Positions 1 through 28,797 of a DNA stretch of 28,797 bases are shown in pieces; positions within the stretch are counted from its first letter, which is position 1, and the number at the start of each line of letters is the position of its first letter. The position numbers and the translations under genes are program-made. The notes under the pieces were generated by a model. It was not told where the DNA came from, did no database searches, and saw only the letters and a program-made list of their open reading frames with translations. The stretch is from an uncultured archaeon (lineage in GTDB: Archaea; Iainarchaeota; Iainarchaeia; Iainarchaeales; CSSED10-239). The stretch spans positions 2,346-31,142 of the forward strand of contig CAYXAY010000006.1 of assembly GCA_964463155.1 (NCBI GenBank). Reading direction: 5' to 3'.

Positions 1-717
1 GTAATTGCAGAACTTGACAAAGAAGAAAACAAATTTACAACAGCTCTAGAAAACGGCATAAAAGAATTTAAAAGATTTACAGACTCTGAAATTGTTCTTT
101 CCGGAAAACACGCCTTCCTTCTTTATCAATCCTTTGGGTTTCCAATAGAGATGATACAGGAACTTGCAAAGGAAAAAGGAATAACTGTTGATATTGAAAG
201 CTTTAAAGAGCAGGAAAGACTACATCAGGAGCTTTCAAGAGTTGGAGCAGAAAAGAAATTTATTGGTGGCCTTGCTGAACACTCAGACATCACAACAAGA
301 TATCACACAGTAACGCACATCTTAAATCAGGCTCTAAGAAACATCTTAGGTAAAGACATAAGACAAAAAGGCAGCAACATAACTTCTGAAAGACTTAGAT
401 TTGATTTTAATTTTGATAGAAAACTAACAGATGAAGAGCTAAAAAAGATTGAATACAAAGTTAATTCTGTTATTGGTAAGCAACTACAAGTAACAAAAGA
501 ATCAATGACTTTAGAAAAGGCACTACAAAGTGGAGCACAAGCAGAGTTTGGGACAAAATACCCCGAGGTTGTGTTTATCTATTCAATTGGCGACTATTCA
601 AAGGAAATCTGCATGGGTCCACATGTTGAAAACACAAGCGAGCTTGGTCATTTTAAGATTACTAAAGAAGAAAGCGTTGCTGCAGGCATAAGAAGAATCA
701 AAGCAATACTTGAATGA
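1..717 (+). CDS. alaS: Alanyl-tRNA synthetase, 3' portion (5' end outside window); ends just after the editing domain
   Basis: Frame 1 is open from nt 1 (VIAELDKEENKF...LYQSFGFPIEMIQELAKEKG) and runs into the tracked ORF. It contains the AlaRS editing-domain zinc motifs HTVTH (HxxxH) and CMGPH (CxxxH), plus IRQKGSNITSERLRFDF and GIRRIKA signatures. Stop TGA at 715-717. Confidence 0.9.
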   Translation, partial: VIAELDKEENKFTTALENGIKEFKRFTDSEIVLSGKHAFLLYQSFGFPIEMIQELAKEKGITVDIESFKEQERLHQELSRVGAEKKFIGGLAEHSDITTRYHTVTHILNQALRNILGKDIRQKGSNITSERLRFDFNFDRKLTDEELKKIEYKVNSVIGKQLQVTKESMTLEKALQSGAQAEFGTKYPEVVFIYSIGDYSKEICMGPHVENTSELGHFKITKEESVAAGIRRIKAILE

Positions 718-726
718 AGATAAAAC

Positions 727-1794: not shown

Positions 1795-1829
1795 TTTATA
1801 AATATTATCTATTCTATATTATATATTAG

Positions 1830-1903
1830 GGGGCTGTAGTGTAGCTTGGTTATCATGAGAGCTTTGGGAGCTTTTGACCCCAGTTCAAATCTGGGCAGCC
1901 TCA
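1830..1903 (+). tRNA. tRNA-Pro (anticodon UGG)
   Basis: Hand-folded cloverleaf. Acceptor GGGGCTG/CAGCCTC (one G-U). Anticodon stem AGAGC/GCTTT with loop TTTGGGA (UGG, G37). T arm CCCAG-TTCAAAT-CTGGG. Discriminator A, no encoded CCA. TATA-like tttataaata lies about 30 nt upstream. Confidence 0.85.
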
Positions 1904-1918
1904 CTTTCTTAAAAACAG

Positions 1919-2524
1919 GTGGTTGTTATAGCAGGCACAATAAAACCTAATTCTCAACTAGAGATTTTCTCAATTATAGAAAGAAAGAAAAGACAAGAAA
2001 TAAAAAAAAATCCAACTGCCATAAAGATATTAGATAATCAAAAAAAAGTTCAAAAAAAAATAAAAACATTCCAAGATAAGATAGAGCAAAATATCACAGA
2101 TTTAAATAATTATTTAGTAAAATTAGAAAATTCCGACAAATACAGCCCATATGTAGAAAAACAAATAATTGAAACAAAATCAAAATTAAAAATTAATTGG
2201 CTAGGAAATAACCTTATAAAAAAATTAAATAATACTTATTTTGAACCAATAGAAATTACAAATGACATAGATGTAAAACTAAATAAATATATATTTAACA
2301 GAAACTCCACAAATTCTAAACAAGATACAATTTTAGACAAAATCTCTGAGATAAATAAAAAGATGCAATCTGAAATTACAACTACTGAAAAAAGAGAATT
2401 GTTTTTGCAATTAATAACTAACATCCTTAGTCTACAAAAAACATTATACGACACTTATGTTTCTAGAAAATCAAAGATTGGACTTTTTAATGAATATTTC
2501 AAGAAGCTTTTGGAAGAATACTAA
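1919..2524 (+). CDS. Hypothetical Lys/Asn-rich, probably coiled-coil protein (non-ATG start)
   Basis: A 201-codon open frame in very AT-rich, stop-prone DNA is unlikely by chance. The only start candidates in the first ~148 codons are non-ATG (GTG at 1919). No motif recognised. Contains three A8-A9 runs (2002-2010, 2040-2047, 2052-2060). Confidence 0.5.
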   Translation: MVVIAGTIKPNSQLEIFSIIERKKRQEIKKNPTAIKILDNQKKVQKKIKTFQDKIEQNITDLNNYLVKLENSDKYSPYVEKQIIETKSKLKINWLGNNLIKKLNNTYFEPIEITNDIDVKLNKYIFNRNSTNSKQDTILDKISEINKKMQSEITTTEKRELFLQLITNILSLQKTLYDTYVSRKSKIGLFNEYFKKLLEEY

Positions 2525-2590
2525 AACGATTATTTTTAAACTATTATCCTAATAGATATTATAGTAAAAAATCTTTAAATATGAATATGC

Positions 2591-4054
2591 ATGGTATCAA
2601 GTGAAGAATATAAAATTGAAGACTTCAATGACTGGTTTAATGATATAACCCAAAAAGCAGAACTTGCAGATCTTAGATATAATATCAAAGGAATAGTTGT
2701 CTATAGACCATGGTCAACCTTTACTCTAAACAAAATGTTTAGATTGTTTGAAGACACCTTAGATTCCACAGGTCACCAGCAAGTAATCATGCCATTATTG
2801 ATACCAGAAGAGAATTTCTTAAAAGAAGCAGAGCATGTTGACGGTTTTTGTCCAGAGGTTTTCTGGGTAACTGAACACGGCACTGAAAAGTTTGAGCAAA
2901 AATATGCTCTGCGTCCAACATCAGAAACTGCTTTCTACTACATGTTTGCTTATTGGCTTGAAAGTTACAGGGATTTACCAATAAAAACATACCAAAGAGC
3001 AAACATCTTTAGATATGACACAAAACAAACTAAGCCATTCTTTAGGGGAAGAGAATTTTACTGGTTTGAAACACATAATATTTTTGAAACTGCAGAAGAC
3101 ACATACGCCCAAATTCTTCAAGATATGCAAATTACTGAAGAGATAATACATCTAGAACTTGGAATACCATTTATCTTTGTTAAAAGACCACAATGGGATA
3201 AGTTTGCAGGAGCAGAAGACACCTTTGCTGCAGACACAATGATGCCAAATGGAAAAGCTAGCCAGCTTGCAACAACTCATATTCTAGGTCAAAAATTTAC
3301 AACCACATTTAATGTTAAGTTTAGAGACAAAGACGAGGAAACAAAAATACCATACGGAACATGCTATGGTCCCGGAATAAGCAGAATCTATGGTAATCTT
3401 ATAGGAGTACATGGAGACAAGAATGGTTTAAGACTACCATTTGAGCTTACACCAATACAAATAATTATTGTCCCTCTTTACTTTTCTAGTCAAGACACCG
3501 AACAACTTGAAAAAATATGTTTAGATTTTGCAGTTGATCTTGATAAACTAGGCTATAGAGTAAAGATAGATGACAATAGAGAAAAGAAACCAAAAGAGAG
3601 GTTTTCCTTCTATGAGATGAAAGGAGTTCCTCTAAGAATAGAGATTGGTCCAAAGGATATTGAAAACTCCCAAGTAACATTATTTAGAAGAGACTTTAAC
3701 ACTAAGGAGAATGTTTTATTCACAGATTTATTTGAAGCCATTGAAAAGATTTCACGAGAGTTTACAGATAACCTAAGAACTCAAGCAGATGATTTCTTTG
3801 AACAAACATTATCAGAAGCAAGCACAAAAGAAGGATTGATAGACGAAATAAAAAAAGGGAAGTTTGTAAAAATTCCGTTCTGTTCAATAGATCATGATGG
3901 AAAATATTGCTATGACGAGCTAAAAGCAGCAACTGATGGTGCCGAAATCAAAGGAACAAGAGTAGACATTACAGAAACACCAGCGCTTGAAGAGCAATGT
4001 GTTATCTGTGGCAACAAGGCAAAGCACTATGTATATGTTGCAAGAAGCTATTAA
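2591..4054 (+). CDS. proS: Prolyl-tRNA synthetase, archaeal/eukaryal type
   Basis: 487 aa, class IIa aaRS. Signatures include YALRPTSET, FRGREFYWFETH and an anticodon-binding domain (PIQIIIVPL). The C-terminal Cys-rich domain (CSIDHDGKYC...CVICGNKA) ends in the terminal Tyr characteristic of this ProRS type. Confidence 0.93.
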   Translation: MVSSEEYKIEDFNDWFNDITQKAELADLRYNIKGIVVYRPWSTFTLNKMFRLFEDTLDSTGHQQVIMPLLIPEENFLKEAEHVDGFCPEVFWVTEHGTEKFEQKYALRPTSETAFYYMFAYWLESYRDLPIKTYQRANIFRYDTKQTKPFFRGREFYWFETHNIFETAEDTYAQILQDMQITEEIIHLELGIPFIFVKRPQWDKFAGAEDTFAADTMMPNGKASQLATTHILGQKFTTTFNVKFRDKDEETKIPYGTCYGPGISRIYGNLIGVHGDKNGLRLPFELTPIQIIIVPLYFSSQDTEQLEKICLDFAVDLDKLGYRVKIDDNREKKPKERFSFYEMKGVPLRIEIGPKDIENSQVTLFRRDFNTKENVLFTDLFEAIEKISREFTDNLRTQADDFFEQTLSEASTKEGLIDEIKKGKFVKIPFCSIDHDGKYCYDELKAATDGAEIKGTRVDITETPALEEQCVICGNKAKHYVYVARSY

Positions 4055-4069
4055 TTGTGATAAGGAAAA

Positions 4070-5812
4070 ATGAACTTTGATGTTATTTCTGAATATTTTG
4101 AAAAAATAAGCAAAACAACAAGTCGCCTAGAGATGACTGAAATTCTAAAACAATTGTTTAAAGAAACACCAAAAGATGAAATACAAAACCTAATCTATTT
4201 CTGTCAAGGAACATTAGGGCCAAAATACAAGACAAAAGAAATAAACATTGGTCAGTCTACTTTAATCTCTCTTGTCTCAGAGTATCTATCTTTACTTGAA
4301 GAAGAAGTAAAAAAAGAATTCTATTCTCTTGGAGACATTGGCTTAGTTGTTGAAAAACACCACTCCAAAAGAAAACAATCTGCTCTCTTTTACAAGCCTT
4401 TAGTCTTTAAAGAAGTTTTTGACACCTTTTTTAAAATTTCAGAAACAACAGGAACTGGTTCAACAGAAAAGAAACAACAATTATTCAAGTTTGTTCTTTT
4501 TAATTCAAGTCCAATTTCTGCAAAATATCTAGTAAGGTTTCCAATTTCCTTTAGACTTGGCTTTGGAGATTCAACAATCATTGATGCTCTTTCAAGTCTT
4601 TCAACAACAGAAGCAGAAGAGCAAAAAAAAGCAAAAGAAGAGATTACAGAAAAATATCTTTTACTTTCTGATTTAGGATTGATTGGAAAAATAATTAAAG
4701 AAAAAGGGATAAAGGAAATTGATTCTTTAAAGATAACTCCATTTATACCTATAAAATCTCAACTTTGCGAAAGAGCAGAAAGTCTTAAAGAGATTCATGA
4801 AAGACTAAAGACTCTAGTAGTTGACACAAAGATAGATGGCTTTAGGCAACAGATACACAAGAAAGGAAACGAAATAAAAATCTTCTCTCGCCAAGAAGAA
4901 GATATAACAAAGATGTTTCCAGATATCGTTGATGCTGTTAAAAAAATAAATCATGACTTTATTATTGATTGCGAATCAATATCCTATGATCCCATCCATA
5001 AGAAATACCACCCCTTCCAAACAACAATAACAAGGAAAAGAAAATATAACATAAGAGAGAAATCAAAAGAACTGCCTCTTCACCTAAAGGTCTTTGATTG
5101 TCTTTACCTTGATGGTAAAGACATTTATTATCTTCCATTTAGTGAACGAAGAAAACTTGTTGAAAAATATTTTTCTTACCCGCCAATAGTCTCTCCAACA
5201 AAGATCTTAATCACAAGCAAGCTTCCTGAGCTTGAAAAGTTTTTCAACCAGACCTTGGAGCAGGGTCTTGAAGGAATAATCGCAAAAGACCTTGAGTCAA
5301 GCTATAAAGCTGGCTCTCGTGGCTATTCTTGGATAAAGTTTAAGAAATCTTATAAAGGTTTAGAAGTCCTTGATACCATTGATGCTGTTATTGTTGGGGC
5401 CTTCTATGGCCAAGGAAAAAGAACAGACAAAGGAATTGGAGCGCTTCTTGTAGCACTTTACGATACAGAAGAAGACAAGTATTTCACTTTAGCAAAGATT
5501 GGAACCGGTCTCACCGACCAAATGCTTTTAGAACTTTCAGAAAAACTAGAATCAACAAAGCTTGAAACAAAACCAAAAAACCTAATAACAAACATAAAGC
5601 CAGACTTCTATGTTTATCCAGAAATTGTTATTGAAATCAACTACGATGAAATAACAAAAAGTCCAGTTCACACCGCAAGTTTTGATCCACAGACCAAGCA
5701 AGGTTTAGCTTTAAGATTTCCAAGACTGGTAAAAATCAGAACAGATAAAAGCCATGAAGACACCACAAACCAAAAAGAACTAGAAAAGCTATTTAGAATG
5801 CAAGAAAAATAA
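4070..5812 (+). CDS. lig: ATP-dependent DNA ligase (Lig1/archaeal type)
   Basis: 580 aa. Adenylation motif I KIDGFR (Lys codon 4829-4831), EGIIAK (motif IV-like), WIKFKK (motif V-like) and LRFPRLVKIRTDK (motif VI). N-terminal DNA-binding domain, then nucleotidyltransferase and OB architecture. Confidence 0.93.
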   Translation: MNFDVISEYFEKISKTTSRLEMTEILKQLFKETPKDEIQNLIYFCQGTLGPKYKTKEINIGQSTLISLVSEYLSLLEEEVKKEFYSLGDIGLVVEKHHSKRKQSALFYKPLVFKEVFDTFFKISETTGTGSTEKKQQLFKFVLFNSSPISAKYLVRFPISFRLGFGDSTIIDALSSLSTTEAEEQKKAKEEITEKYLLLSDLGLIGKIIKEKGIKEIDSLKITPFIPIKSQLCERAESLKEIHERLKTLVVDTKIDGFRQQIHKKGNEIKIFSRQEEDITKMFPDIVDAVKKINHDFIIDCESISYDPIHKKYHPFQTTITRKRKYNIREKSKELPLHLKVFDCLYLDGKDIYYLPFSERRKLVEKYFSYPPIVSPTKILITSKLPELEKFFNQTLEQGLEGIIAKDLESSYKAGSRGYSWIKFKKSYKGLEVLDTIDAVIVGAFYGQGKRTDKGIGALLVALYDTEEDKYFTLAKIGTGLTDQMLLELSEKLESTKLETKPKNLITNIKPDFYVYPEIVIEINYDEITKSPVHTASFDPQTKQGLALRFPRLVKIRTDKSHEDTTNQKELEKLFRMQEK

Positions 5813-5813
5813 A

Positions 5814-6542
5814 TTATTTAATTCTTTCAATAACTAATGTATTATATTTGTGTTGATTTAAAGAATAATCATCTCTTTCATAAAAACCGGTTTTAAATCC
5901 TTGCTTTTTTAGATGAGCAGTTATAAATTTTAACTGTGGATTGCCCTTCAAATAATCAACATTTAATAGCAATGCCCCACCAATTTTTAGAGAATAAGCG
6001 GATTTTAATATCATTTCTTTTCTATAATCTACTAATTCAGAAAAAGAAAAGTAAATCGCCCCATTTAAATCAACAATCAAATCGTATTTTTTATTTATAA
6101 TATGCTCTGTTGCAGGGAGATTTGTTCTTTTGTCAATAAGTTTTTTATTTTCTTCTGTAGCATTATCAAAGAGAGAAATTCCTTCAACTTTGCTTGGAAT
6201 TTTCTCGTAATTCAGTTGTTTTTTAAGTTCTGCTAAAAAATGCCCTTGCCCATAGCCAAGTTCTAAAACCGCAACAGATTCTTTTGTTTTTTTAAATCGC
6301 TTTTTAAGAAAATCAAGAAAATGATCTCCAAGCCCACTTTTTTTAAATCCGTATTCTAAATCTAAAATATAGTTTAAATATTTTCTATCAGTAGGCCAAT
6401 CATTCATTTCATCTATTTCTTTTCTTAACCTAATAAGTTTTTTATGATTTTCTAAATCTTTCTTTTTTTCAAGTTTTTTTACAATCTCTTTATTAAAATG
6501 AATAGAAACTTTTGTTGGAGGTCTGCTTTTTTGTACTCTCAT
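5814..6542 (-). CDS. Class I SAM-dependent methyltransferase, substrate unknown
   Basis: Motif I-like VLELGYGQGHF. Strong Shine-Dalgarno AAGGAGGT about 8 nt upstream of the ATG. Lies 25 nt downstream of the KaiC-like gene on the same strand, so probably an operon. Its stop is 1 nt from the ligase stop. Confidence 0.75.
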   Translation of the reverse strand: MRVQKSRPPTKVSIHFNKEIVKKLEKKKDLENHKKLIRLRKEIDEMNDWPTDRKYLNYILDLEYGFKKSGLGDHFLDFLKKRFKKTKESVAVLELGYGQGHFLAELKKQLNYEKIPSKVEGISLFDNATEENKKLIDKRTNLPATEHIINKKYDLIVDLNGAIYFSFSELVDYRKEMILKSAYSLKIGGALLLNVDYLKGNPQLKFITAHLKKQGFKTGFYERDDYSLNQHKYNTLVIERIK

Positions 6543-6567
6543 CCTTATACCTCCTTAATAAAAAGAA

Positions 6568-7287
6568 CTAGTATAGCTTAACAGCACTCCACATTACTTC
6601 ATCTCTTGGGTTAACTACAAGCCCTGAGTTTGTAATCTCACAAGGATGTATCGCTGGAGAATGCTTTGTTCCTCTTAGTTTCCTAACAAAAATACTTCTG
6701 TGTGGCGGAATAAAATACATTGCAAAGACCCCATCAACAACAAATTCTTCAACACCATAAGCAGAAAAGTCTCTTGCTCCGCCGGTTGTCTCAGCGGTCA
6801 TTAATGTTGTACAGTTTAAGTCTTTTAAATAATCTCCAAACCTAAACAAAAGGTTTCTAAGTTTGCCAGTATCGTTTATCCAACCTCCAAAAGCAGTGGT
6901 GGAGTCAACGGTTAATCTTGTTGCCCCTATATCTTTAACCATTGAAGAAATAATATCAAGTTCTTTGTCTATCTGTGATTCAACATCTTTTCTTGGATCA
7001 ATATGCATTCTATAAATCTTCATTAAGTTTTTCTGTTCAAGAGACCTAATATCCCAATTAAAGTTTTCCATGTTCCAAACAATGTTTTTAAGATTGTCTT
7101 CAACAGTAACATAAAGTCCAGGGTCTCCAAATCTTCTAGCCCCTTCATAAATATAAGTTGTTGCAAAAATGGTTTTACCGGAACCACAACCACCTGAAAC
7201 CAAAATTGTTGCTCCTTCAGGTATTCCTCCTTGTATCAATTCATCAAACCCAGTAACACCTGTTGTAACTCTATTCATTTTAAACAC
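6568..7287 (-). CDS. Single-domain KaiC/RecA-superfamily ATPase (KaiC-like / ArlH-like)
   Basis: Typical KaiC-domain layout: TGVTGFDELIQGGIPEGATILVSGGCGSGKT (Walker A), VED, RLTVDS (Walker B-like) and RKLRGTKH. The tracked start is GTG at 7287. An in-frame ATG at 7278 (MNRVTTG...) is an equally good or better start. Confidence 0.85.
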   Translation of the reverse strand: MFKMNRVTTGVTGFDELIQGGIPEGATILVSGGCGSGKTIFATTYIYEGARRFGDPGLYVTVEDNLKNIVWNMENFNWDIRSLEQKNLMKIYRMHIDPRKDVESQIDKELDIISSMVKDIGATRLTVDSTTAFGGWINDTGKLRNLLFRFGDYLKDLNCTTLMTAETTGGARDFSAYGVEEFVVDGVFAMYFIPPHRSIFVRKLRGTKHSPAIHPCEITNSGLVVNPRDEVMWSAVKLY

Positions 7288-7394
7288 CGTTTTTAGTCAT
7301 TTAATCACTAATTATATTTAGTATAATATATTTATATACCTATTGTTAATATTATTTTATAGGGGAAAATAATTAGAGGGAGATGTAGATATTT

Positions 7395-8693
7395 ATGTTT
7401 AAATCAAAAGGTCAGGTTTCTATAGAAGTATTAATAGTTCTGGCAATATTGGTTGTTGGGGGGGTGGTTTTTGGAATCTATTACATAAACCATCTAAACA
7501 CAAGCATAAAGGAATCAGACCAGACAGGGGGTCTAGGCACAGCAGTTGACAGCTTCGTTAATTCCTTAGACCAAAATGAAACAATAACAACTACAGGCAG
7601 ATTATCAATACAAATTACATCGCCAACTATCACGACGTTTACTGTTGGCTCAGCAATAAATTTTATTGCAACAGCAACAGAAGCTAATGGGACAGTGCGT
7701 TGTGATTGGAACTATGGAACAACGCGATTCCAGACAAACAGCTGTAATTTTATTTATTCAAGTCTACCAGTAGGAATACACACAATAACTGTCAGAGCAA
7801 CAGATAATAGATACACCGCTACTGATACAAAACAAATAACAATTAATCCAACAGTTCCCTCATTTAATGTGCAAATAATAAATCCGGGAACAACTATATA
7901 TGTTGGACAATCAACCGTCTTTTCTGCAACCGCACAAGGGGCATTACCAGGAGATTACAATTGTTCTTGGAAATTAGATGGGGCAAACATTAGTAATCAA
8001 TGTAATTTTACACATACACCGCCTAGCTGTGTAGATAACAAATTATTAAGATTAGAATCTTGGAGAACAACCCCAATTCCTGCAGTATTTGATTCTAATT
8101 CAAAAACAGTAAATATCACTTCCGCATTATCTGGACAAATACGCACTTTACCGGAAACAGGAACACAATACAATTTTGGAGAACACATAACATTTACTGC
8201 AGTCTTCTCCGGAAGTCATGGTGATGTAACTTGTGAATGGTTTATTGATGGAGGAGCAGTTAAAAATTATGGTAATGACGAATGTATATTATATACTGAG
8301 GTGTTACCAGTTGGGTTTTCAGATATTAAAGTAGTTATAGATGATGCGTGTAGGACAATAGAACCAACAGTAGCTATTGATATTTTAAGACAAGATACAT
8401 TTGTTGCAAGGATATTAACCCCCATACAAGGTCAAACCTTTTTTAAAGAAGAACCAATTAATTTATCTATAATAACAAACTTAAGTGATCCAAATACAGA
8501 ATTAAATTGTTATTGGGAAGTAAATTCAATTGCATTAGAGTCATCTGAGTGTAATATTAATGATATTCAAACACTATATCCAATTTTAAATACAGAATTA
8601 CCAGCATCATTTAATATATCTGTTATGGTTACTGTTGTTGAGACTGATGTTAGGTCCATTCATCAATTAGATATAAATGTAGTAGAAGAATAA
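7395..8693 (+). CDS. Secreted/pilin-like protein: archaeal class III signal peptide followed by four PKD/Ig-like repeats
   Basis: The N-terminus MFKSKG|QVSIEVLIVLAILVVGGVV fits the archaeal prepilin pattern (basic residues, Gly, then QxSxE and a hydrophobic helix; DUF361/Epd-pilin-like). It is followed by four ~85-aa repeats, each with a C-x-W...C pair and an LPVG...I.V..D beta-sandwich-like pattern. Confidence 0.75.
   Translation: MFKSKGQVSIEVLIVLAILVVGGVVFGIYYINHLNTSIKESDQTGGLGTAVDSFVNSLDQNETITTTGRLSIQITSPTITTFTVGSAINFIATATEANGTVRCDWNYGTTRFQTNSCNFIYSSLPVGIHTITVRATDNRYTATDTKQITINPTVPSFNVQIINPGTTIYVGQSTVFSATAQGALPGDYNCSWKLDGANISNQCNFTHTPPSCVDNKLLRLESWRTTPIPAVFDSNSKTVNITSALSGQIRTLPETGTQYNFGEHITFTAVFSGSHGDVTCEWFIDGGAVKNYGNDECILYTEVLPVGFSDIKVVIDDACRTIEPTVAIDILRQDTFVARILTPIQGQTFFKEEPINLSIITNLSDPNTELNCYWEVNSIALESSECNINDIQTLYPILNTELPASFNISVMVTVVETDVRSIHQLDINVVEE
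7599..8684 (+). repeat. Four tandem divergent PKD-like domain repeats (protein-level) inside CDS 7395-8693
   Basis: The repeated pattern V.F.A.......C.W..........C.....LPVG...I.V..D appears four times (VRCDWNYG...NSCNF; YNCSWKLDG...NQCNF; VTCEWFIDG...DECIL; LNCYWEVNS...SECNI). Repeat boundaries are approximate. Confidence 0.6.
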
Positions 8694-9386: not shown

Positions 9387-9887
9387 ATGGCAAAAGAAAA
9401 ACATAACCTCGAAGAGATCAAATGCGCAATTGAAGCAATACTTTTCATGAGCCCAAGAAGCGTTCCTATAAAAAAGATTGAAAAGAATTTTCCAGAGGCC
9501 GAAAAGGAAGTTGTAAGAATTGTTCTTTCTGATCTAAAGGAAGAATATGAAAAAAGAAATTCAGCAATAAAGATTATTATTGACCAAGACTCAGCAGAGA
9601 TGCTTCTAAAATCAGAATATTCTAAGTTTAGTGTGTTTGCTGTGGGAAAGCAACTTACAAAGTCAGAGCTTAAGACCCTTGCATTGATTGCCCTTAACAG
9701 CCCAGTGTCACAACAAAAAATTACCACCAGAAGACCTCGCAAGAATCTTCCAACTTTAAAGGAACTAGGATTAATTAATGTCTACAAAAAAGGAAGAAAA
9801 AACATCCTTGAGACAACAAAAAAATTTGATGCATTATACAATAAAAAAGCAAAACCAAGTTTTGAACAAAAAAGTGAAAACAAATGA
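9387..9887 (+). CDS. scpB: Segregation and condensation protein B
   Basis: IEAILFMSPRSVPIKKI... and LTKSELKTLALIALNSPVSQQKI match the two ScpB winged-helix signatures. Its stop overlaps the next ATG (ATGA at 9884-9887). Confidence 0.8.
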   Translation: MAKEKHNLEEIKCAIEAILFMSPRSVPIKKIEKNFPEAEKEVVRIVLSDLKEEYEKRNSAIKIIIDQDSAEMLLKSEYSKFSVFAVGKQLTKSELKTLALIALNSPVSQQKITTRRPRKNLPTLKELGLINVYKKGRKNILETTKKFDALYNKKAKPSFEQKSENK

Positions 9888-12058
9888 ATAAAAAATTTAT
9901 ATTTGTATTTTTATTTCTAATATTTATTTCTGCAAACATTTTTGCTTATCTACCAAAAGCAGATATGAAAATCTTTGCGGTTAATTCTCAAGGAAGGGGG
10001 ATGGATGCTAATCTTATAATTGAAATAAAACCCGGAACAGGAAAAATATATTCAAATATTAATTCTCAAGTCGGAGTATTAACCCAAGAATCAGAGAGAA
10101 ACGCAGTAATCGCTGCTGAAAGGATTGTTCCAAATGCCAAAGGCAAGTACGATTATTTCTTTGAGATACAATCTGTTGCAAGTTTAATTGATGGACCGTC
10201 AGCAGGAGCAGCAATGGCCTTATTGATTGTTTCAATGCTTAACGACAAAGACCTTTCAGGAAAAGTAAGCATTACTGGAACAATAACAGAAGACGGCTTT
10301 GTGGGAGACGTTGGGGGAATTGGGTCCAAGGCAAAAAAAGCTTCAGAGATTGGTATAAAACTATTTATGATACCTGCAAGAAGCAGAAGACAAGCAATAA
10401 CAAACGCATCAGGAAACGCACAGATTGTTGACCTTCCTGATTTTGCTTATAATAACTGGAATATGAAGGTTGTTGAGGTAGAGACAATTGAAGACATAAA
10501 AAATTATGTTTCAATGAATATTGAAGAAATTGATATTAACAAGACAAAAGAAACAACAACCCCTGATTATTTACCTCCAGGAATAGAATACTCAGACGCA
10601 TTATTGCCTATGAGAAACATTGTTGATGATTATATAGTAAATGCCAACAGTATACTTACAAGAACCGAAAACAGCATAAGCAATAGCAAGATAAAAGACA
10701 GTTCAATTGTTCAAAGTTTATTGTCATTAGTCGATTACTCAAAGGAATCAATATCACAAGCAGAAAAATACTCAAAAGCAAATTATCTTTATACAGCAGC
10801 TAACGAAGCGTTCTTAGCAAAAACCTATTTGATAACAATAGATGAAGTTGTTAATAACCCATCAATACTTTCATCTGATTCAACAATATACAATATGAGA
10901 ATAAAAAACATAGAAAACAAAATAGCAACTACGGAAAACCGTTCAAAACTATGTTCTCTTGACAAGATGGAATGGTGTATAAGTGCAAGACAAAGAATTG
11001 TCTGGGCAAAAAACAAGATTAAAGACATCAAGTCATCAAGTAGCAACAGTAATTCGCAACTTGACAAGATAATGAACTACAGTTATTCCCTTGCTTGGGT
11101 AAACATAGCAAATGATTTCTTAGATGCAGGAATAAGTAATAACAGTCCAGCATTTGTTGAAAGCTCAGAATTCAAGGAATTAGCTCAACAATATATAGTT
11201 GACATAGAAAACGAAATTGTTTTAGTTGATGCATCAATTGCTCAAAATGCTGACCTTCAAAGAAGATTAGAGGCCGCAAAGACAGATTATGAGATGGGTT
11301 GGTATGTCACAGCCCTTTATGATGCAGCATCAGCAAAGGCAATATTAAAATCAAGAAAAGAAACAAGCCAAGAGGCGTTTGACGAAAACCATTTTATTGT
11401 AAAATACAATACAATGAGTTTTTTAACAACACCACAAAACAAAAACAGTCTAACAAATATTTGGTCAAAAATGTATTTTGACCATTCAACATTCTATTAC
11501 AAAAGCCATCAACACTATAAAAGCAAAAACACAACAAAAGCAACAAACGCCATTAAAACAGCAAACTCTGTTATCAATCTTTCGACAGAGCTTTTCAATA
11601 TTGAGACAAAGGTTCATGAATATTATAATAATGCTGGAAATATTGTTATTGAAATTAAAGACAAGGAAATAAAACCAGATTCAGAAACGAATATTCCAAA
11701 GACAACTACTACGCAAACAACAGATAAGGTATATGTCTATGCTAAAGGAGATAGTAAAAACACAACGATACTTTATGTAATAGCCATCGGTTTATTTTTG
11801 ATGATTGTTGCAATAATTGTTGATAACGAAATTAGAAGGAACAACAAACAGGCAAAGATACAAAAAGCGTTATTGGAATTAGAACACAAGCTTTCTGATG
11901 GTCACATAAGTAAATTCACATATGACGATATGAAAAAGAGTTATCTAAAAGAACTAAAAGACAAAAAACAAGAGATGTCTCAGAAACTAGAAAGCAAAAA
12001 AGAAGCAGTGGAAATCAAACTGCCACAAAAAACAAGCGTTACAAAAAAAAAAAAATAA
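9884..12058 (+). CDS. Lon-type (S16) serine peptidase domain protein without an AAA+ module; N-terminal signal/anchor, long helical region, C-terminal TM and Lys-rich tail
   Basis: Lon proteolytic-domain motifs: IDGPSAGAAMALLIV (Ser codon at 10199) and ITGTITEDGFVGDVGGIGSKAKKA (Lys of the Ser-Lys dyad). No Walker motifs anywhere. N-terminal FIFVFLFLIFISANIFA and C-terminal ILYVIAIGLFLMIVAIIV are hydrophobic segments. Confidence 0.8.
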   Translation: MNKKFIFVFLFLIFISANIFAYLPKADMKIFAVNSQGRGMDANLIIEIKPGTGKIYSNINSQVGVLTQESERNAVIAAERIVPNAKGKYDYFFEIQSVASLIDGPSAGAAMALLIVSMLNDKDLSGKVSITGTITEDGFVGDVGGIGSKAKKASEIGIKLFMIPARSRRQAITNASGNAQIVDLPDFAYNNWNMKVVEVETIEDIKNYVSMNIEEIDINKTKETTTPDYLPPGIEYSDALLPMRNIVDDYIVNANSILTRTENSISNSKIKDSSIVQSLLSLVDYSKESISQAEKYSKANYLYTAANEAFLAKTYLITIDEVVNNPSILSSDSTIYNMRIKNIENKIATTENRSKLCSLDKMEWCISARQRIVWAKNKIKDIKSSSSNSNSQLDKIMNYSYSLAWVNIANDFLDAGISNNSPAFVESSEFKELAQQYIVDIENEIVLVDASIAQNADLQRRLEAAKTDYEMGWYVTALYDAASAKAILKSRKETSQEAFDENHFIVKYNTMSFLTTPQNKNSLTNIWSKMYFDHSTFYYKSHQHYKSKNTTKATNAIKTANSVINLSTELFNIETKVHEYYNNAGNIVIEIKDKEIKPDSETNIPKTTTTQTTDKVYVYAKGDSKNTTILYVIAIGLFLMIVAIIVDNEIRRNNKQAKIQKALLELEHKLSDGHISKFTYDDMKKSYLKELKDKKQEMSQKLESKKEAVEIKLPQKTSVTKKKK

Positions 12059-14111: not shown

Positions 14112-14184
14112 GCCTCAGTAGCTCAGTGGTTGGAGCAATCGACTGTTAATCGATAGGTCGTAGGTTCAAATCCTACCTGGGGCG
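14112..14184 (+). tRNA. tRNA-Asn (anticodon GUU)
   Basis: Acceptor GCCTCAG/CTGGGGC. D arm GCTC-AGTGGTTG-GAGC. Anticodon stem ATCGA/TCGAT with loop CTGTTAA (GUU, A37). T arm GTAGG-TTCAAAT-CCTAC. Discriminator G, no encoded CCA. Confidence 0.9.
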
Positions 14185-14223
14185 CATAATTAGATTCTAT
14201 TTTTAGATAAATTAATAAATACC

Positions 14224-15772: not shown

Positions 15773-15787
15773 ATTGGGTTTTATATA
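15773..15787 (+). promoter_or_regulatory. Putative BRE/TATA promoter element (attgggttttatata) for the secretion-ATPase operon
   Basis: Identical 15-mer to 13112-13126. It ends 23 nt before the ATG at 15811, a leaderless geometry. Confidence 0.4.
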
Positions 15788-15810: not shown

Positions 15811-17598
15811 ATGTATCTTAGATTAAAAGATGTTCTAAAAAAAGAACTAAAAGACAGAGATATCTTTAATAATTGCTATCAAAATCTGGATAAAAAAGAC
15901 ATTTCTGTGTTTAATTGTAGAAACTGTATTGATGCGGTTTGTATCAATGCTTGCAAGACAGGCGCAATAGCAAAATCCGAAAATGGAATAATAAACATTA
16001 ATTCCAAGTTATGCAAAAAATGTCTGGAATGCCAGGTGACTTGTCCAAATAATGCAATTGTCATAAAGAAAGGAATTCCAAGAAAATGCGATTTGTGCTT
16101 GAATAACTCGTATCTTATGCCATGTTATTATTCTAACAAAGACATCTTAGAGTTTGTAGATGACATCTCAACAACTTCTCTTCAATCAATTCTTGACAAA
16201 TATCTAGGATATGTAGTAACTCAAGAAAAAGCACAAAGAACTTTGTCCCTTGATTTTAAGGTGATTGAAACAACAGACAACAAGCAAAGATATGTTATAA
16301 GGCATCAAAAGCTATCAAGAGAGGAAATAAAAGTCATTAATGATATCCTTGATTCTTATAAATTTAAGACAATAGAAGAAACAGACACAGAAAACAGCGT
16401 AAGAAAGGATTTAGAAGACGAATTAATAGATTATTGTCTAAACAACAACATTGAACTTGACAATGACCAATTCCAATACCTCTTGGAAATGGCATACACA
16501 AATCTATATGAACACGGCCCATTAACCCAATTATTAAATGATTTTAATCTTGAGGAAATCGCAATAATTGGAGTCAACTACCCGGTCTTTGTCTATCACC
16601 GACATTATGGTTGGCTCGAAACAAATTTAAAATATGTTTCTGAGCAGAAATTAAAAGACCTAATAAACAAACTTGGTTGGTATTCTAACAAATATATAAC
16701 CTTAAAAAATCCAATAATGGATGCAACATTAAAAGACCATACAAGACTTAACGCCATAATCTCTCCAATAACTGAAAATGTTTGTTTAACTATAAGAAAG
16801 TTTTCAGAGACTCCTTTTACAATCTATGACATTGTTAAAAACAATACAATAACAGAAAAAGCACTTGCTTTTCTTAAACTTGTTTTTCTAACAGATGCAA
16901 ATGTGTTTGTTATTGGTAACACTGGCTCAGGAAAAACAACAACATTAAACGCACTTTTAGATTTTGTTCCAACACAGCAAAGAGTAGTGATAGTTGAAGA
17001 GGTTCATGAGATAAATATCTCTCATCCACACCAAGTTCAGACAACAGTTAACAAGGAGCTTGGAATAACAATGGACAATCTAATAATTAACACCTTAAGA
17101 ATGAGGCCAGATAAGGTTGTTATTGGCGAAGTAAGAACAAAAGAAGAAACCTATTCTCTTATAGATTCTCTTCTTTGTGGGCAAGCAAAAGGCACCTACA
17201 CAACCTTTCATGCACAGTCAGCAAATGATGCTGTATTAAGGTTATTATCTTATGGAGTTTTAGAATCAGATATTTCAGCAATTGACCTGATGGTTACTCA
17301 AAGACGATATAATGAATATTTTGATATCAAAAACAATGACAACAGCAAAGATCAAAGAAAAGTCTTTGAGATAACAGAAATAAATTTTGAAAAAGGAAAG
17401 ATAAAAGCCAACAAAATATTTGAATATGATCTTAAAAGAAAAGAACTTGTGTTTAGAAACTATCCAAAAAAACTAATGTCAAAATTACAGATAAGCTTTG
17501 GAATAAAAGACAAAGAAGAACTTGACAAAAGACTAAAAGAAGAAGAGCAAGAGATTTTCTCAAAAACAAAAAGCAGAAAAAAATATGAAATTAAGTAA
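15811..17598 (+). CDS. Type II/IV secretion-system ATPase (FlaI/TadA/VirB11 superfamily) with an N-terminal ferredoxin-like Cys-cluster domain
   Basis: Walker A GNTGSGKTT (16915-16941), RVVIVEEVHEI (Asp-box-like), LRMRPDKVVIGEVR (Walker B) and TYTTFHAQSANDAVLRL (His box). N-terminal aa 36-105 carry CxxCxxxxCxxxC, CxxCxxCxxxCP and CxxCx8C. Confidence 0.88.
   Translation: MYLRLKDVLKKELKDRDIFNNCYQNLDKKDISVFNCRNCIDAVCINACKTGAIAKSENGIININSKLCKKCLECQVTCPNNAIVIKKGIPRKCDLCLNNSYLMPCYYSNKDILEFVDDISTTSLQSILDKYLGYVVTQEKAQRTLSLDFKVIETTDNKQRYVIRHQKLSREEIKVINDILDSYKFKTIEETDTENSVRKDLEDELIDYCLNNNIELDNDQFQYLLEMAYTNLYEHGPLTQLLNDFNLEEIAIIGVNYPVFVYHRHYGWLETNLKYVSEQKLKDLINKLGWYSNKYITLKNPIMDATLKDHTRLNAIISPITENVCLTIRKFSETPFTIYDIVKNNTITEKALAFLKLVFLTDANVFVIGNTGSGKTTTLNALLDFVPTQQRVVIVEEVHEINISHPHQVQTTVNKELGITMDNLIINTLRMRPDKVVIGEVRTKEETYSLIDSLLCGQAKGTYTTFHAQSANDAVLRLLSYGVLESDISAIDLMVTQRRYNEYFDIKNNDNSKDQRKVFEITEINFEKGKIKANKIFEYDLKRKELVFRNYPKKLMSKLQISFGIKDKEELDKRLKEEEQEIFSKTKSRKKYEIK
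15916..16125 (+). other. Ferredoxin-like poly-cysteine domain (putative 2x[4Fe-4S] plus extra Cys triad) within CDS 15811-17598
   Basis: CRNCIDAVCINAC (C36/39/44/48), CKKCLECQVTCP (C68/71/74/78-Pro, the canonical 4Fe-4S motif) and CDLC...PC (C93/96/105). Confidence 0.65.
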
Positions 17599-18301
17599 GC
17601 CAATAATAATCTATTCAATAATCTTTGTAAGCATTTGTATTGTTTTCGTTTTAGTCAATTTTATATTTGACATATCTATCAATTATCTCTTGTATTCGCA
17701 ATTGATGTCATTTGTTTTGTTTTTTTCAATAATCTTTTTCATAAAAAGAATAAAGCAACAGGATGACAGGACAAGGATATTAAGGGAGCTTCCGTTCTTT
17801 CTAAACAATCTTGCAAGCGACATAGAAAAGAACGTTCCATTAAAACTTTCCTTGGAGAACCGTGCAAAACAAAACTCAGTTATAGGAAAAAGAATAGCTC
17901 AGGCGTTGTTGCTGGTTACCAAAAAAGGATATAATCTTGAGATCGCTTTAGAGGAAACAACAAAAAACAATAAGGAGCTGCAAAGAGTAATCTACCAGAT
18001 AAACGATATACTTTCAAGTGGAACAAAAAACAAGGCAGAGACCTTTAGAATACTTTCAAATAACTTTTCTGAACAGCAAAGCCTTGCAATAAAGAACTAT
18101 TCAACAAAGCTTAATTTTCTTTCTTTGGTTTTTGTGGTGGCTTCTGCAATTGTTCCTGCACTTTTCTTGATGTTTTTTCTTGTTGGCAGCAATTTCTTTG
18201 AGATAAGCATTTCTCCTTTTGGAATCATCATGATAACGGTTGTGGTGTTTCCAATAATTGATATGTTTATTCTTTTATTTATGAGGGCGAGTTTGGTGTG
18301 A
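17585..18301 (+). CDS. Pilus/secretion platform membrane protein, T2SS-F (TadB/TadC/FlaJ-like) single-domain
   Basis: Two N-terminal TM helices, a ~110-aa cytoplasmic helical domain with the T2SS-F-like pattern (LPFFLNNLASDIEKNVPL..SLE....G..LE.ALEE), then two C-terminal TM helices. Overlaps the ATPase gene by 14 nt. Confidence 0.62.
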   Translation: MKLSKPIIIYSIIFVSICIVFVLVNFIFDISINYLLYSQLMSFVLFFSIIFFIKRIKQQDDRTRILRELPFFLNNLASDIEKNVPLKLSLENRAKQNSVIGKRIAQALLLVTKKGYNLEIALEETTKNNKELQRVIYQINDILSSGTKNKAETFRILSNNFSEQQSLAIKNYSTKLNFLSLVFVVASAIVPALFLMFFLVGSNFFEISISPFGIIMITVVVFPIIDMFILLFMRASLV

Positions 18302-18302
18302 T

Positions 18303-19127
18303 ATGGAGTTTAACAAAAAGATTGCTGTTTTTGTGTTTGTAAGTCTACTAGTGGTTTGCATGTTGTTTTTATTTTTTAAATTACGCTTGGTTCTTTGTCT
18401 AATAATTGTTATTGTTCTAAATTATGTTTGCTATATGGTCTTTGAATTATTCAAAAAATATATGTTTAATATTAAGAAAAAGAAACTTGAAATGGCATTG
18501 ATTGATGAGGTCTTGCTTTTATCAAGCCAACCAAGAACAAACGATATCAAGCAGATGCTTTTTAAACTATCAAACTCAAGGTACAAAATCATACAACAAG
18601 AGTTTAAAGTCATATTAAGAAAAATAGAAAACGGGCATAATGTAAAGGAATTGTTTTATGTTCTTTCAAGAAAATATAATTCAGAGATATTAGATAGGTT
18701 TTTGGAACTGTTAAGCAATTCAATAACAACAGGAACAGTTTCGGTTTCAGATTACCGAACATTTTCAAGCAATTTTTTAAAATCCAAGCAATTGATTGAT
18801 GAAAGAGCATCGGCATTGTTGATGCAAAAATACACAATAATGTTTGCAGGGGGCCTGATTGTTCCGGGAATACTTGGCGTAGTGATTTCTCTTGTAAGAA
18901 AATTGTCACAAAATCTGGATTTTACGTTAATCCAGCAATTCCAATCCCAATCGTCCTTATTTACAATATGTTATGTCTGCTCAATAATATATGTGATTGA
19001 ATATGTAATTATATCCGCGATATATTTAGCAATGCTTGAATCTGATATAAAAAAAACAATAATATATTTGGTTTTGATGCTTCCTATTGCAGTCTCAATA
19101 TTCTTTCTTGGACACCTAATTATTTAA
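18303..19127 (+). CDS. Second T2SS-F (TadB/TadC/FlaJ-like) platform membrane protein
   Basis: Same TM, helical-domain, TM architecture as the preceding gene (...KIENGHNVKELFYVLSRKY...LELLSNSITTGT...). Starts 1 nt after the preceding stop. Confidence 0.58.
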   Translation: MEFNKKIAVFVFVSLLVVCMLFLFFKLRLVLCLIIVIVLNYVCYMVFELFKKYMFNIKKKKLEMALIDEVLLLSSQPRTNDIKQMLFKLSNSRYKIIQQEFKVILRKIENGHNVKELFYVLSRKYNSEILDRFLELLSNSITTGTVSVSDYRTFSSNFLKSKQLIDERASALLMQKYTIMFAGGLIVPGILGVVISLVRKLSQNLDFTLIQQFQSQSSLFTICYVCSIIYVIEYVIISAIYLAMLESDIKKTIIYLVLMLPIAVSIFFLGHLII

Positions 19128-19812: not shown

Positions 19813-19884
19813 GCCCTAGTAGTCTATCGGTTAGGATGCAACCCTGTCGAGGTTGTGGGATGGGTCCGACTCCCGTCTAGGGCG
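19813..19884 (+). tRNA. tRNA-Asp (anticodon GUC)
   Basis: Acceptor GCCCTAG/CTAGGGC is perfect. Anticodon stem CAACC/GGTTG with loop CTGTCGA (GUC, G37). T arm ATGGG-TCCGACT-CCCGT. Discriminator G, no CCA. The T loop is atypical (C at position 55 in my fold). Confidence 0.8.
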
Positions 19885-19946
19885 CTCTTATTTTAAACTT
19901 TAAATATGTTTATAAGATTTTATATTTTAGATATAGATATAAGTTG

Positions 19947-27494: not shown

Positions 27495-28797
27495 ATGGGC
27501 ATAAGAAAAGCAGAAACTAAATTCTCTCAAAAAGGGGTATCAACATTAGTTACTGTTGTACTAATCATAGTAGTTGTAGTTATTATCGCAATTTTGATTT
27601 TAGGATTTGGTAAAGGATTCATTTCAAGTAGTGTAAATCTTGCAAGCTCTATATTTGACACAAAAGATTTATTAAAGGCAAATCTTACAGTTATGGAATT
27701 TATTCCAGCAACTCTTGAAAATTCAGGATATCTGATGTTAAAAAATATTGATGATAAGCAAATTACAATCTTAGCATATACTATTGCAGACGATGAAGGA
27801 TATTCTCAGAATATTATGCTAGATAGTGAAACAACAATTCTCTCTGGGGGAACAGCAATCATGCCGATTGATTTTATTTTTCCTGGGACAAAAGTAATTT
27901 TTACAATATATAATAATGATGGATATTATACTTTGCCTGTAATTACAAAAGCAGCTCAAAGCACACCTGCAATTGAAGCAGTAACTTTTAGTGTTCCAAC
28001 AGGTACATATAATGCAAATCAATCAATAACCCTAAGCTCAACAACGACTAATGCAACAATATATTACACAACAGATGGAAGCGCACCCACAACATCAAGC
28101 ACAAAATATTCAAGCGCAGTTAGCATCACTCAAAGCACAACATTAAAAGCAATAGCGTATTTAAGAGGATTTACAAGCACAGAAGCAAGTGCGGTATACA
28201 CTTTACAAGTTCCTGCATCATTTATTCCTAGTCAACCAACAGGAACATATTATACAGACCTTTCAGTTTCTTTTAGTTCAATACCATCTGGAGCAACGGT
28301 TTATTATACTTTAAATGGAAGTGTTCCAACAACATCATCAACAGCATATACTCCTAACACTTCGTTTTCGATAGACCAGACAAGAACATTAAGAGCAATT
28401 GCTGTAAAGACTGGCTGGACAAACAGTACAGAAATTACAAGAACATATACTATGGTGGTTGCAGCACCAACAGATTTTCCAGGAGAAGGAACCTATAGTG
28501 AAGCTCAATTAGTGACTTTAGAAACCTCAACATCAGACAGTAAAATTTATTATACTATAGATGGTAGTCAGCCAACAATATTTAGCACATTGTACGATAG
28601 CCCATTTATAATCTCAGAAACAACAACATTAAAAGCAAGAGCTTTTAGAAGTGATTGGACAGATAGTGGAACATTAACTTCAACATACACTATTGGTGAA
28701 AGTCAAGTAGGACAATTACTGTTTTCTGCAGGAGAAAATTATACTTGTGCAGTTAACGCAGAAGGAGAAGTATATTGTTGGGGAAATAACAGTGATG
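27495..28797 (+). CDS. Pilin-signal surface adhesin-like protein (3' end outside window): class III signal peptide, N-terminal domain, 3 chitobiase-C-like repeats, start of RCC1 repeats
   Basis: Not in the ORF track because it runs off the window. Translating from ATG 27495 gives 434 stop-free codons. MGIRKAETKFSQKG|VSTLVTVVLIIVVVVIIAILIL is an archaeal pilin-N-type signal. There are three (S/T)xPxGTY...IYYT(T/L/I)(D/N)GS.PT..S..Y...tLkA.A repeats. The visible end GENYTCAVNAEGEVYCWGNNSD is RCC1-like. Confidence 0.8.
   Translation, partial: MGIRKAETKFSQKGVSTLVTVVLIIVVVVIIAILILGFGKGFISSSVNLASSIFDTKDLLKANLTVMEFIPATLENSGYLMLKNIDDKQITILAYTIADDEGYSQNIMLDSETTILSGGTAIMPIDFIFPGTKVIFTIYNNDGYYTLPVITKAAQSTPAIEAVTFSVPTGTYNANQSITLSSTTTNATIYYTTDGSAPTTSSTKYSSAVSITQSTTLKAIAYLRGFTSTEASAVYTLQVPASFIPSQPTGTYYTDLSVSFSSIPSGATVYYTLNGSVPTTSSTAYTPNTSFSIDQTRTLRAIAVKTGWTNSTEITRTYTMVVAAPTDFPGEGTYSEAQLVTLETSTSDSKIYYTIDGSQPTIFSTLYDSPFIISETTTLKARAFRSDWTDSGTLTSTYTIGESQVGQLLFSAGENYTCAVNAEGEVYCWGNNSD
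27978..28694 (+). repeat. Three tandem ~80-aa domain repeats (chitobiase/beta-hexosaminidase C-terminal-like, Thr/Ser-rich) within CDS 27495->
   Basis: Repeat units at about 27978-28208, 28209-28454 and 28455-28694 share PTGTY/GEGTY, (I/V)YYT.(D/N)GS.PT, TLKA(I/R)A and YT(L/M/I) endings. Confidence 0.7.

Follow-up and report, generated by a model that had tools for sequence, protein, structure and literature searches.

The locus described here raises the question of what a ferredoxin-like domain contributes to the motor ATPase of an archaeal type IV pilus. It lies in a stretch of 28,797 nucleotides (hereafter, the window) from contig CAYXAY010000006.1 of an uncultured archaeon, in which positions 15811..17598 of the + strand constitute a 595-aa open reading frame (ORF) extending from ATG to TAA. 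The product of this gene is a polyferredoxin domain of the HycB/CooF/DmsB type located N-terminal to a complete FlaI/GspE/CpaF-type secretion ATPase. We tentatively propose, with confidence just short of even, that the motor ATPase encoded by 15811..17598 assembles an Epd/Tad-like type IV pilus in a DPANN (Iainarchaeota-like) archaeon and that this ATPase carries an input or assembly domain dependent on redox state, O2, or Fe-S status, the clusters being predicted and the regulatory role putative.

Pfam, NCBIfam, homologue alignments, and AlphaFold2 (AF2) models were used to annotate the whole gene as a fusion of an Fe-S domain with a type IV pilus (Epd/Tad-like) assembly ATPase. The N-terminal polyferredoxin domain, which contains 12 ligand cysteines, comprises residues 1-112 (15811..16146, + strand) and was delimited by the Fer4_11 match, NCBIfam and PDB searches, AF2/Foldseek, and the cysteine sets. 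A linker and the first N-terminal ATPase domain (N1) follow at residues 113-245 (16147..16545, +), as located by alignments and Foldseek; this segment includes the LG[WY] motif with its invariant G133, the point at which non-fused relatives start. The N2 domain, the C-terminal RecA-like ATPase domain, and the C-terminal helices occupy residues 246-595 (16546..17598, +) on the basis of the T2SSE match, motifs, and PDB matches.

The ATPase half belongs to the T2SSE superfamily of ATPases, as its score, its catalytic boxes, and its fold of N2 plus RecA-like C-terminal domain demonstrated. Pfam matched T2SSE (PF00437) to residues 295-502 with 123.9 bits against a gathering cut-off of 24.9 (E 8e-36). 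The catalytic boxes comprise Walker A (GNTGSGKTT, residues 369-377; nucleotides 16915-16941, +, placed by motif location), the Asp box (VEEVHE, 395-400), RMRPD (430-434), Walker B (VVIGEVR, 436-442), and the His box (TFHA, 465-468), and the original prediction of a complete FlaI/TadA/VirB11-type ATPase in the same ORF as the cysteine-rich segment was thus correct. In an alignment of 87 fused homologues, K375, E396, E400, E440, R442, and H467 were invariant. By sequence, residues ~140-595 were nearest to archaeal afGspE (PDB 2oap, E 1e-51), followed by FlaI (4ii7) and CpaF/TadA (8rkd), and the E values for the PDB ATPases afGspE, FlaI/ArlI, and TadA/CpaF ranged from 1e-51 to 1e-33. The AF2 model of the whole protein, which was built on 87 homologues and had a mean predicted local distance difference test score (pLDDT) of 88.3, matched 2oap, 4ihq/4ii7, and 8rjf in Foldseek with E values of 2e-34 to 2.2e-28 over 435-488 alignment columns, with 454-488 for afGspE and FlaI; the best match was 2oap (E 2e-34, template-modelling score normalised to the target 0.71).

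At the subfamily level, identity with FlaI/ArlI (NF058587) was rejected at 185.5 bits against a curated cut-off of 550, as were TadA/CpaF (TIGR03819, 156 against 373) and VirB11 (TIGR02788, 149.8 against 250). Scores so far under the equivalog cut-offs of FlaI, TadA, and VirB11 therefore place the protein outside all three named subfamilies. An archaellum context was also rejected: the downstream genes encode two separate single-T2SSF proteins instead of one two-domain FlaJ, and neither an archaellin nor FlaF/G was found in the window.

The N-terminal part was assigned by three kinds of evidence. Pfam matched Fer4_11 (PF13247) to residues 35-98 with 32.0 bits against a gathering cut-off of 26.2, so that the Pfam check proposed with the original prediction returned both a ferredoxin family and T2SSE. 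In NCBIfam, this part aligned with the middle of DmsB, HydN, HybA, DsrO, AegA, and PadI. A phmmer search of the PDB retrieved the Fe-S subunit of an aldehyde oxidoreductase (9mqx_E, 3e-9), together with HDCR HycB4, WOR5, ArrB, HycB, PsrB, and NarH, and a sharper search with a profile built from 30 N-terminal domains matched 9mqx_E at 2e-18 (profile positions 13-114), PsrB at 4e-17, NarH at 5e-14, and the MvhB polyferredoxin at 5e-30. A separate AF2 model of residues 1-165 reached a pLDDT of 87, and the top 24 Foldseek matches of the domain model were all Fe-S electron-transfer subunits of the HycB/CooF/DmsB class; the structure-prediction check thus gave the expected fold. Hidden Markov model, modelled fold, and cysteine conservation all identify the N-terminal part as a true Fe-S domain of the ferredoxin type, with predicted cluster binding. 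The module is derived from a four-cluster HycB/CooF/DmsB-type domain and not from a simple 2x[4Fe-4S] ferredoxin. The earlier suggestion of a ferredoxin-type module therefore stood, whereas its assignment to the 2x[4Fe-4S] type did not, the domain being of the four-cluster type reduced to three.

The cysteines provided the evidence for this reduction. The protein has 15 cysteines, at positions 22, 36, 39, 44, 48, 68, 71, 74, 78, 93, 96, 105, 209, 325, and 456, and 12 of the 15 are located within residues 22-105 (hypergeometric p ~1e-8). The three motifs C36xxC39xxxxC44xxxC48, C68xxC71xxC74xxxC78-P79, and C93xxC96x8C105 were exactly as originally quoted; nevertheless, the 11 cysteines counted there omitted C22, which is invariant in the 87 fused homologues and brings the number of ligand cysteines to 12. 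Across the same alignment, in which homologues were as little as 32% identical to the window protein, C22, C48, C68, C71, C74, C93, C96, and C105 were invariant and C36, C39, C44, and C78 were each present in at least 90% of the sequences. The cysteine positions, whose conservation in orthologues the original prediction had proposed as a check, were thus kept in the fused homologues.

We read 16 canonical ligand columns in this alignment as cysteine groups I to IV, with positions 1 to 4 in each. The window protein retains C22 as I-4, C36/39/44/48 as group II, C68/71/74/78 as group III, and C93/96/105 as positions 1-3 of group IV. All 16 ligands were present in 40 of the 87 homologues, and 12 were present in 44, including the window protein, with positions 1-3 of group I and position 4 of group IV missing. 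Two homologues (P0041 and P0043) had eight ligands, positions 1-3 of group II and position 4 of group III being additionally absent. The remaining one (P0065) had 15; its IV-4 column is a gap, but C112 is situated five residues past IV-3, and the IV-4 cysteine is probably displaced. Outside the ferredoxin domain, C209 (nucleotides 16435-16437), which forms part of a YC motif in the helical N1 domain, was kept in at least 90% of the fused homologues and occurred with both the 16-Cys and the 12-Cys forms.

In subunits of the NarH/DmsB/PsrB type, group I pairs with group IV and group II with group III, and each cluster is held by the first three cysteines of one group and the fourth of its partner. 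Because of this pairing, the cysteines missing from the 12-Cys and 8-Cys forms correspond to the ligand sets of one and two clusters, respectively. On the assumption that the window domain follows the same pairing, three [4Fe-4S] clusters are predicted, namely C36/C39/C44+C78, C68/C71/C74+C48, and C93/C96/C105+C22, and C22 is, by its alignment column, the surviving fourth cysteine of group I that would complete the last of these. The ancestral domain would have held four [4Fe-4S] clusters, and the window clade would have dropped exactly one ligand set, leaving three. In a rough neighbour-joining tree of close relatives, from which reference Epd or Tad sequences were left out, the 12-Cys forms constituted a single contiguous block, and the set losses amount to about two evolutionary events. 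The chance that four random cysteine losses would make up a canonical set is 4/1820 for the first event and 3/495 for the second, each less than 1%.

Whole-set loss, together with the near-invariance of the 12 cysteines, argues strongly for three real [4Fe-4S] clusters, as predicted from the alignment. Mean identity within the clade was 57% for the Fe-S domain (50% when Cys-Cys columns were excluded), whereas N1, next to it, reached 47% and the catalytic domain 73%; by this comparison, the Fe-S domain is under purifying selection. These values bear on the alternative that the domain is a relic, a ferredoxin fold that no longer binds Fe-S, with cysteines that bind Zn or form disulfides, and that persists as a neutral or decaying appendage. 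The loss of one cluster site in the window clade and of two in a sub-clade, as well as repeated loss of the entire domain, would agree with decay. However, all 12 ligands are invariant or nearly so in a clade that has diverged to ~50% identity, the CxxCxxCxxxCP motif and its surrounding residues are kept, the domain is more conserved than N1, and the losses proceed set by set and not by random erosion. We consider a relic most improbable.

We also considered whether the domain is truly translated with the ATPase. The N-terminus MYLKLK... is conserved in all relatives of the window protein. A TATA-box-like element, TTTATATA (15780..15787, +), whose promoter role is putative, lies 24-31 nt upstream of the ATG; this TTTATA[TA]A element, the ATG, and the whole upstream intergenic DNA are nearly identical in the related loci L081 and L082, in which the protein is 76% identical. 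The promoter-like motif originally noted for this gene is therefore a conserved element, and its spacing would fit an archaeal promoter that gives a leaderless or near-leaderless mRNA. A scan for sigma-70 promoters was uninformative (25 sites against 19.6 expected), that model not being applicable to archaea. A mis-called start and an assembly chimera were both ruled out by the conserved N-terminus, ATG, and promoter region. The conservation of these elements and of the ligand cysteines supports translation of the Fe-S domain as part of the ATPase, from M1, and speaks against a start past residue ~105, which had been named as a possible refutation of the fusion.

The type of filament served by the ATPase was indicated by the two genes that follow it. 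The first, whose start overlaps the ATPase stop by 14 nt, encodes a TadB/EpdJ-like platform protein of the inner membrane that has one T2SSF domain (17585..18301, +; 21.2 bits), and a second, TadC/EpdK-like platform protein, also with a single T2SSF domain (18303..19127, +; 20.3 bits), starts 2 nt past the previous stop. Both scores are just under the T2SSF cut-off of 25.2 bits; the platform orthologues in related loci (including L083, L085, and L087) have recorded T2SSF matches at E <= 1e-5, in agreement with the original view that the ATPase heads a cassette with two platform genes. The second protein is a weak paralogue of the first (23% identity, E 0.007), and the arrangement of an ATPase gene with two single-T2SSF genes is kept in L081-L087. 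Two separate single-T2SSF platform genes beside the ATPase are a hallmark of Epd/Tad-like type IV filaments (Denise et al. 2019, PMC6668835). By gene arrangement, 15811..19127 is thus assigned as an Epd/Tad-like type IV pilus cassette with operon structure, in which the motor ATPase would be co-transcribed with its two TadB/TadC-like platform proteins.

The fusion is not peculiar to this window. When 5.8 billion proteins were searched, it was present in 87 of the 120 top-ranking clusters at 90% identity, and among the best 150 representatives of 50%-identity clusters (1.84 billion proteins), ~30 had an N-terminal Fe-S module, with cysteine contents from 16 down to a single motif; these counts do not support the rarity that had been presumed, and they make the gene one of a large family. 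A scan of GTDB genomes with motifs general to such ATPases gave at least 600 matches, to bacterial CpaF and other archaeal ATPases, with no close fused relative among the matches listed. Source names of the fused proteins ('Ca. ainarchaeum', 'Ca. Diapherotrites', and 'Ca. Undinarchaeales') place the fusion in Iainarchaeota/Diapherotrites and Undinarchaeales. NCBI labels the fused proteins only 'ATPase, T2SS/T4P/T4SS family', whereas the automatic IMG label, 'Flp pilus assembly CpaF family ATPase/Fe-S-cluster-containing hydrogenase component 2', combines both COG names. In the literature searched, including surveys of archaeal type IV pili (PMC4858521, PMC6668835), these ATPases were nowhere described with a ferredoxin or other Fe-S domain, although a description may exist elsewhere. 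That no N-terminal ferredoxin module was known to the original prediction from the described architecture thus agreed with the literature searched but not with automatic annotation. A common, already annotated fusion had been named there as a possible refutation, and this condition applies in part: the architecture is abundant in metagenomes, is machine-annotated, is undescribed as far as we found, and is not unique to the window.

Many close relatives lack the module and begin at the 'LGW' motif (profile position ~115-160). Syntenic non-fused cassettes were found in L087-L089, where two T2SSF genes, or one fused T2SSF gene in L089, follow an ATPase gene with no room for an Fe-S domain, and no stand-alone ferredoxin gene that could represent a split version was present near these three non-fused orthologues. 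The existence of syntenic non-fused orthologues without a separate ferredoxin indicates that the Fe-S module is accessory. It has come or gone several times; counted roughly by parsimony on the neighbour-joining tree, there were 25 changes. No redox-enzyme partner was conserved beside the cassette in the loci examined, a Flavin_Reduct gene occurring in L083 only.

We favour a regulatory role because the module is accessory and no redox partner is conserved nearby, and because N-terminal sensor domains recur on T2SSE ATPases (MshEN-type domains on PilB/MshE ATPases bind cyclic di-GMP) and the archaeal RNA polymerase subunit Rpo3 offers a precedent. In Rpo3, the [4Fe-4S] clusters of a ferredoxin-like domain govern assembly of the polymerase (PMC5300874). 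Redox or O2 gating, as originally suggested, is a plausible hypothesis. By the mechanism that we propose, the ~112-residue polyferredoxin would be an accessory module added to the motor at its conserved N-terminus; the motor would need intact and/or reduced clusters to form hexamers, to engage the platform, or to hydrolyse ATP, and pili would be built only in an anoxic, reduced, Fe-S-replete cell. Three points weigh against this proposal. Classical Fe-S sensors have a single cluster, and a chain of three or four clusters is the signature of an electron wire. No sequence feature was found that points to sensing or that tells it apart from structure or electron transfer as the function of the domain. 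Many relatives have lost the domain, which would fit a non-regulatory element, for instance one used in docking, just as well.

Docking is one such alternative. The clusters would be bound but redox-inert in vivo, and the domain would act as a structural module, a rigid lever or surface that connects the motor to the TadB/C-like platform or to some other partner. The Fe-S domain directly precedes N1, and in FlaI/GspE-type ATPases, the N1 domain faces the membrane and the platform. The absence of a conserved redox partner near the cassette would fit, and ABCE1, an ABC ATPase whose N-terminal 2x[4Fe-4S] domain acts mechanically on the ribosome, provides a precedent. The 8-Cys homologues are also relevant. 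In P0041 and P0043, which are 51% identical homologues, the CxxCxxxxC of group II and the fourth cysteine of group III are replaced, for example by 'FPKDTSIIDKNKII'. Only clusters B (IV1-3+I4) and D (III1-3+II4) are kept, which in NarH-type folds are not neighbours, so that the wire is broken while the domain is retained. With two non-adjacent clusters left, as read from their ligand columns, these proteins would constitute a natural test case against an electron-wire function. However, the orthologous cassettes L087-L089 dispense with the domain, which would be surprising if its function were mechanical. Moreover, it is not parsimonious for a pure scaffold to retain 12-16 ligand sites that are costly and labile to oxygen, and the 8-Cys forms account for only 2 of the 87 homologues. 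We regard docking as possible but rather unlikely.

The same cluster chain could serve as an electron conduit. According to this explanation, three to four clusters would link a cytoplasmic donor (a ferredoxin or an oxidoreductase) to the platform or the pilus, so that the base of the pilus would serve extracellular or inter-cell electron transfer or reducing power would reach a step of pilin maturation. The fold is that of dedicated electron-transfer subunits, namely HycB, PsrB, FdnH, NarH, and the small subunits of AOR/WOR5; the ancestral form with all four clusters occurs in 40 of the 87 proteins; and the window clade has lost only the terminal cluster, so that three consecutive ones remain, if, as we assume, the cluster order is that of the NarH structure. 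Opposing these observations, neither a donor nor an acceptor is evident, the platform proteins are without haem or Fe-S motifs, and no oxidoreductase is conserved beside the cassette in the loci examined. The non-fused orthologues work without the domain, and the chain is interrupted in the 8-Cys variants. Moreover, DPANN archaea of the window type are not known to have respiratory chains. These points render a conduit improbable. A bolder version, which we regard as a long shot, is that the six polyferredoxin domains of a hexamer, with 18-24 [4Fe-4S] clusters in all, are arranged in a ring on the cytoplasmic side of the pilus machine and form an electron gateway; the motor would be coupled to electrons that pass into or out of the pilus, the platform, or an attached host. 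If so, it would be a redox-active type IV filament base of a previously unknown type, with which metabolically reduced symbionts would exchange reducing equivalents or sense host redox directly.

The proposed motor-input function would have its own consequences. Few nanomachines have been studied as thoroughly as type IV filament motors, whose known inputs are cyclic di-GMP, phosphorylation partners, and a structural Zn site. If the domain is a motor input, redox state, oxygen, or iron-sulfur status would represent a new input class. DPANN archaea depend on cell-cell contact and are nearly intractable genetically, and the fusion offers a concrete hypothesis, open to biochemical tests, on what turns their attachment structures on. 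The 16-, 12-, 8-, and 0-Cys versions in the same cassette constitute a natural experiment for dissecting the role of each cluster.

The genomic surroundings of the cassette differed between clades. A recurring neighbourhood was observed in the Diapherotrites-type loci L083, L085, L087, L088, and L089, whether or not the ATPase has an Fe-S domain. A PAC2 (proteasome-assembly-chaperone-like) gene is located downstream of the platform gene or genes in all five of these loci (immediately so in L085, L087, and L089), a DUF192 gene is upstream of the cassette in L083, L085, L087, and L089, and a Prenyltransf gene is present as well in L085, L087, and L089. The window clade has lost the PAC2/DUF192 context; in its place, a phosphoribosyl pyrophosphate (PRPP) synthetase gene and a PCC-domain gene are upstream and a VTT/DedA gene is downstream. 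Giant ORFs without a recorded Pfam match were found upstream of the Fe-S-ATPase cassette in L081 (3311 aa, 1-6411) and L083 (3908 aa, 1-7618), immediately upstream bar one small DUF192 gene in L083 and with two opposite-strand genes in between in L081; the window has no giant ORF at the equivalent place.

Some relatives departed from the usual size. P0121, P0122, and P0132 (1154-1605 aa) are very high-scoring and two to three times longer, with the profile matched in several stretches, and may be tandem or multi-domain ATPase fusions. Relatives of 830-1040 aa, some of them from Hydrothermarchaeales, had PF23989/FtsK_SpoIIIE matches in place of the Fe-S domain.

Candidate substrates of the cassette were found elsewhere in the window by motif scan. 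The gene at 7395..8693 (+) encodes a 432-aa pilin-like adhesin with a class III prepilin-type signal, MFKSKG|QVSIEVLIVLAILVV, followed by Ig-like repeats; the Class_IIIsignal match scored 19.3 bits, under the cut-off, TIGR04205 matched at E 4e-4, Big_7/PKD_3 repeats were present, and Glu occupies position +5. Divergent from it, 6568..7287 (-) encodes a KaiC/FlaH-like single-domain ATPase of 239 aa (KaiC PF06745, E 1.7e-60; FlaH/ArlH matches weak), and in L085, a KaiC-like gene is located two genes upstream of the Fe-S ATPase. The 7395 protein would be linked to the Fe-S ATPase, and it and the 6568 ATPase may represent an adhesin-pilin and an accessory ATPase that belong, with the motor cassette 8 kb away, to one pilus system. 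A second candidate pilin-like surface protein, with the class III-type N-terminus ...SQKG|VSTLVTVVLIIVVVV, is encoded by 27495..28797 (+), which is open at the window end; it had a weak UpsA match (E 0.0045) and contains, besides three repeats of the CHB_HEX_C_1/Fn3_assoc type, the first part of an RCC1 repeat. Neither a short pilin nor a prepilin peptidase (EppA/TadV) gene was found in the 28.8-kb window.

The remainder of the window (~31% G+C) includes housekeeping genes for an archaeal-type prolyl-tRNA synthetase (ProRS), an ATP-dependent DNA ligase, Trm5, ScpA/B, a leucyl-tRNA synthetase (LeuRS), and PRPP synthetase. Among named relatives, the LeuRS was most similar to proteins from 'Candidatus ainarchaeum sp.' (69% and 60% identity); Woesearchaeota came next at ~55%. 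The source is accordingly a DPANN archaeon of Iainarchaeota/Diapherotrites type. A 724-aa protein encoded at 9884-12058 (+) begins with a signal or anchor sequence and has a Lon_C (S16) protease domain without an AAA+ module; this Lon-protease-domain protein seems to be secreted or bound to the membrane. Genes for tRNA-Pro (TGG, 1830-1904), tRNA-Asn (GTT, 14112-14185), and tRNA-Asp (GTC, 19813-19885) were identified, the last of them directly past the VTT/DedA gene that comes after the pilus cassette.

Comparison with known systems placed each half of the fusion. Over residues ~115-595, the protein shares a common N1-N2-C-terminal domain architecture and all catalytic boxes with afGspE (2oap), FlaI/ArlI (4ii7, 4ihq), and TadA/CpaF (8rjf, 8rkd, 9e24); the window protein adds ~112 residues with 12 ligand cysteines ahead of their start, and we know of no Fe-S domain on afGspE, FlaI/ArlI, or TadA/CpaF. 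The known metal site of bacterial GspE/PilB-type ATPases is a tetracysteine Zn site in the C-terminal domain. This site, which the original prediction also named as the one known in the family, is lacking in the window protein, whose C-terminal domain contains just C456. The GspE/PilB Zn site and MshEN resemble the Fe-S domain in being metal or sensor accessories of ATPases of the T2SSE family, but the cyclic di-GMP-binding MshEN is not related to ferredoxins.

The Epd pilus of Methanococcus maripaludis and the bacterial Tad pilus (PMC6668835) have a contiguous ATPase gene and two single-T2SSF genes, as does the window. The window also contains candidate class III signal-peptide pilins and a KaiC/FlaH-like ATPase, but away from the cassette, and the polyferredoxin N-terminal on the ATPase is a feature of the window system. 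ABCE1/RLI and Rpo3 (D) likewise have a ferredoxin-like [4Fe-4S] domain, N-terminal or inserted, on a non-redox machine, with a structural or assembly role; they carry one or two clusters compared with three or four here, and they are unrelated host proteins with non-homologous fusions. Relative to four-cluster ferredoxins, the window protein has 12 of the 16 cysteines and is a three-cluster derivative. The HycB/CooF/DmsB/PsrB/NarH subunits (Fer4_11) have the cysteine-group pattern and the ferredoxin-like double-domain fold in common with the window domain; those subunits partner a catalytic redox subunit, whereas the window domain is instead joined to a P-loop motor.

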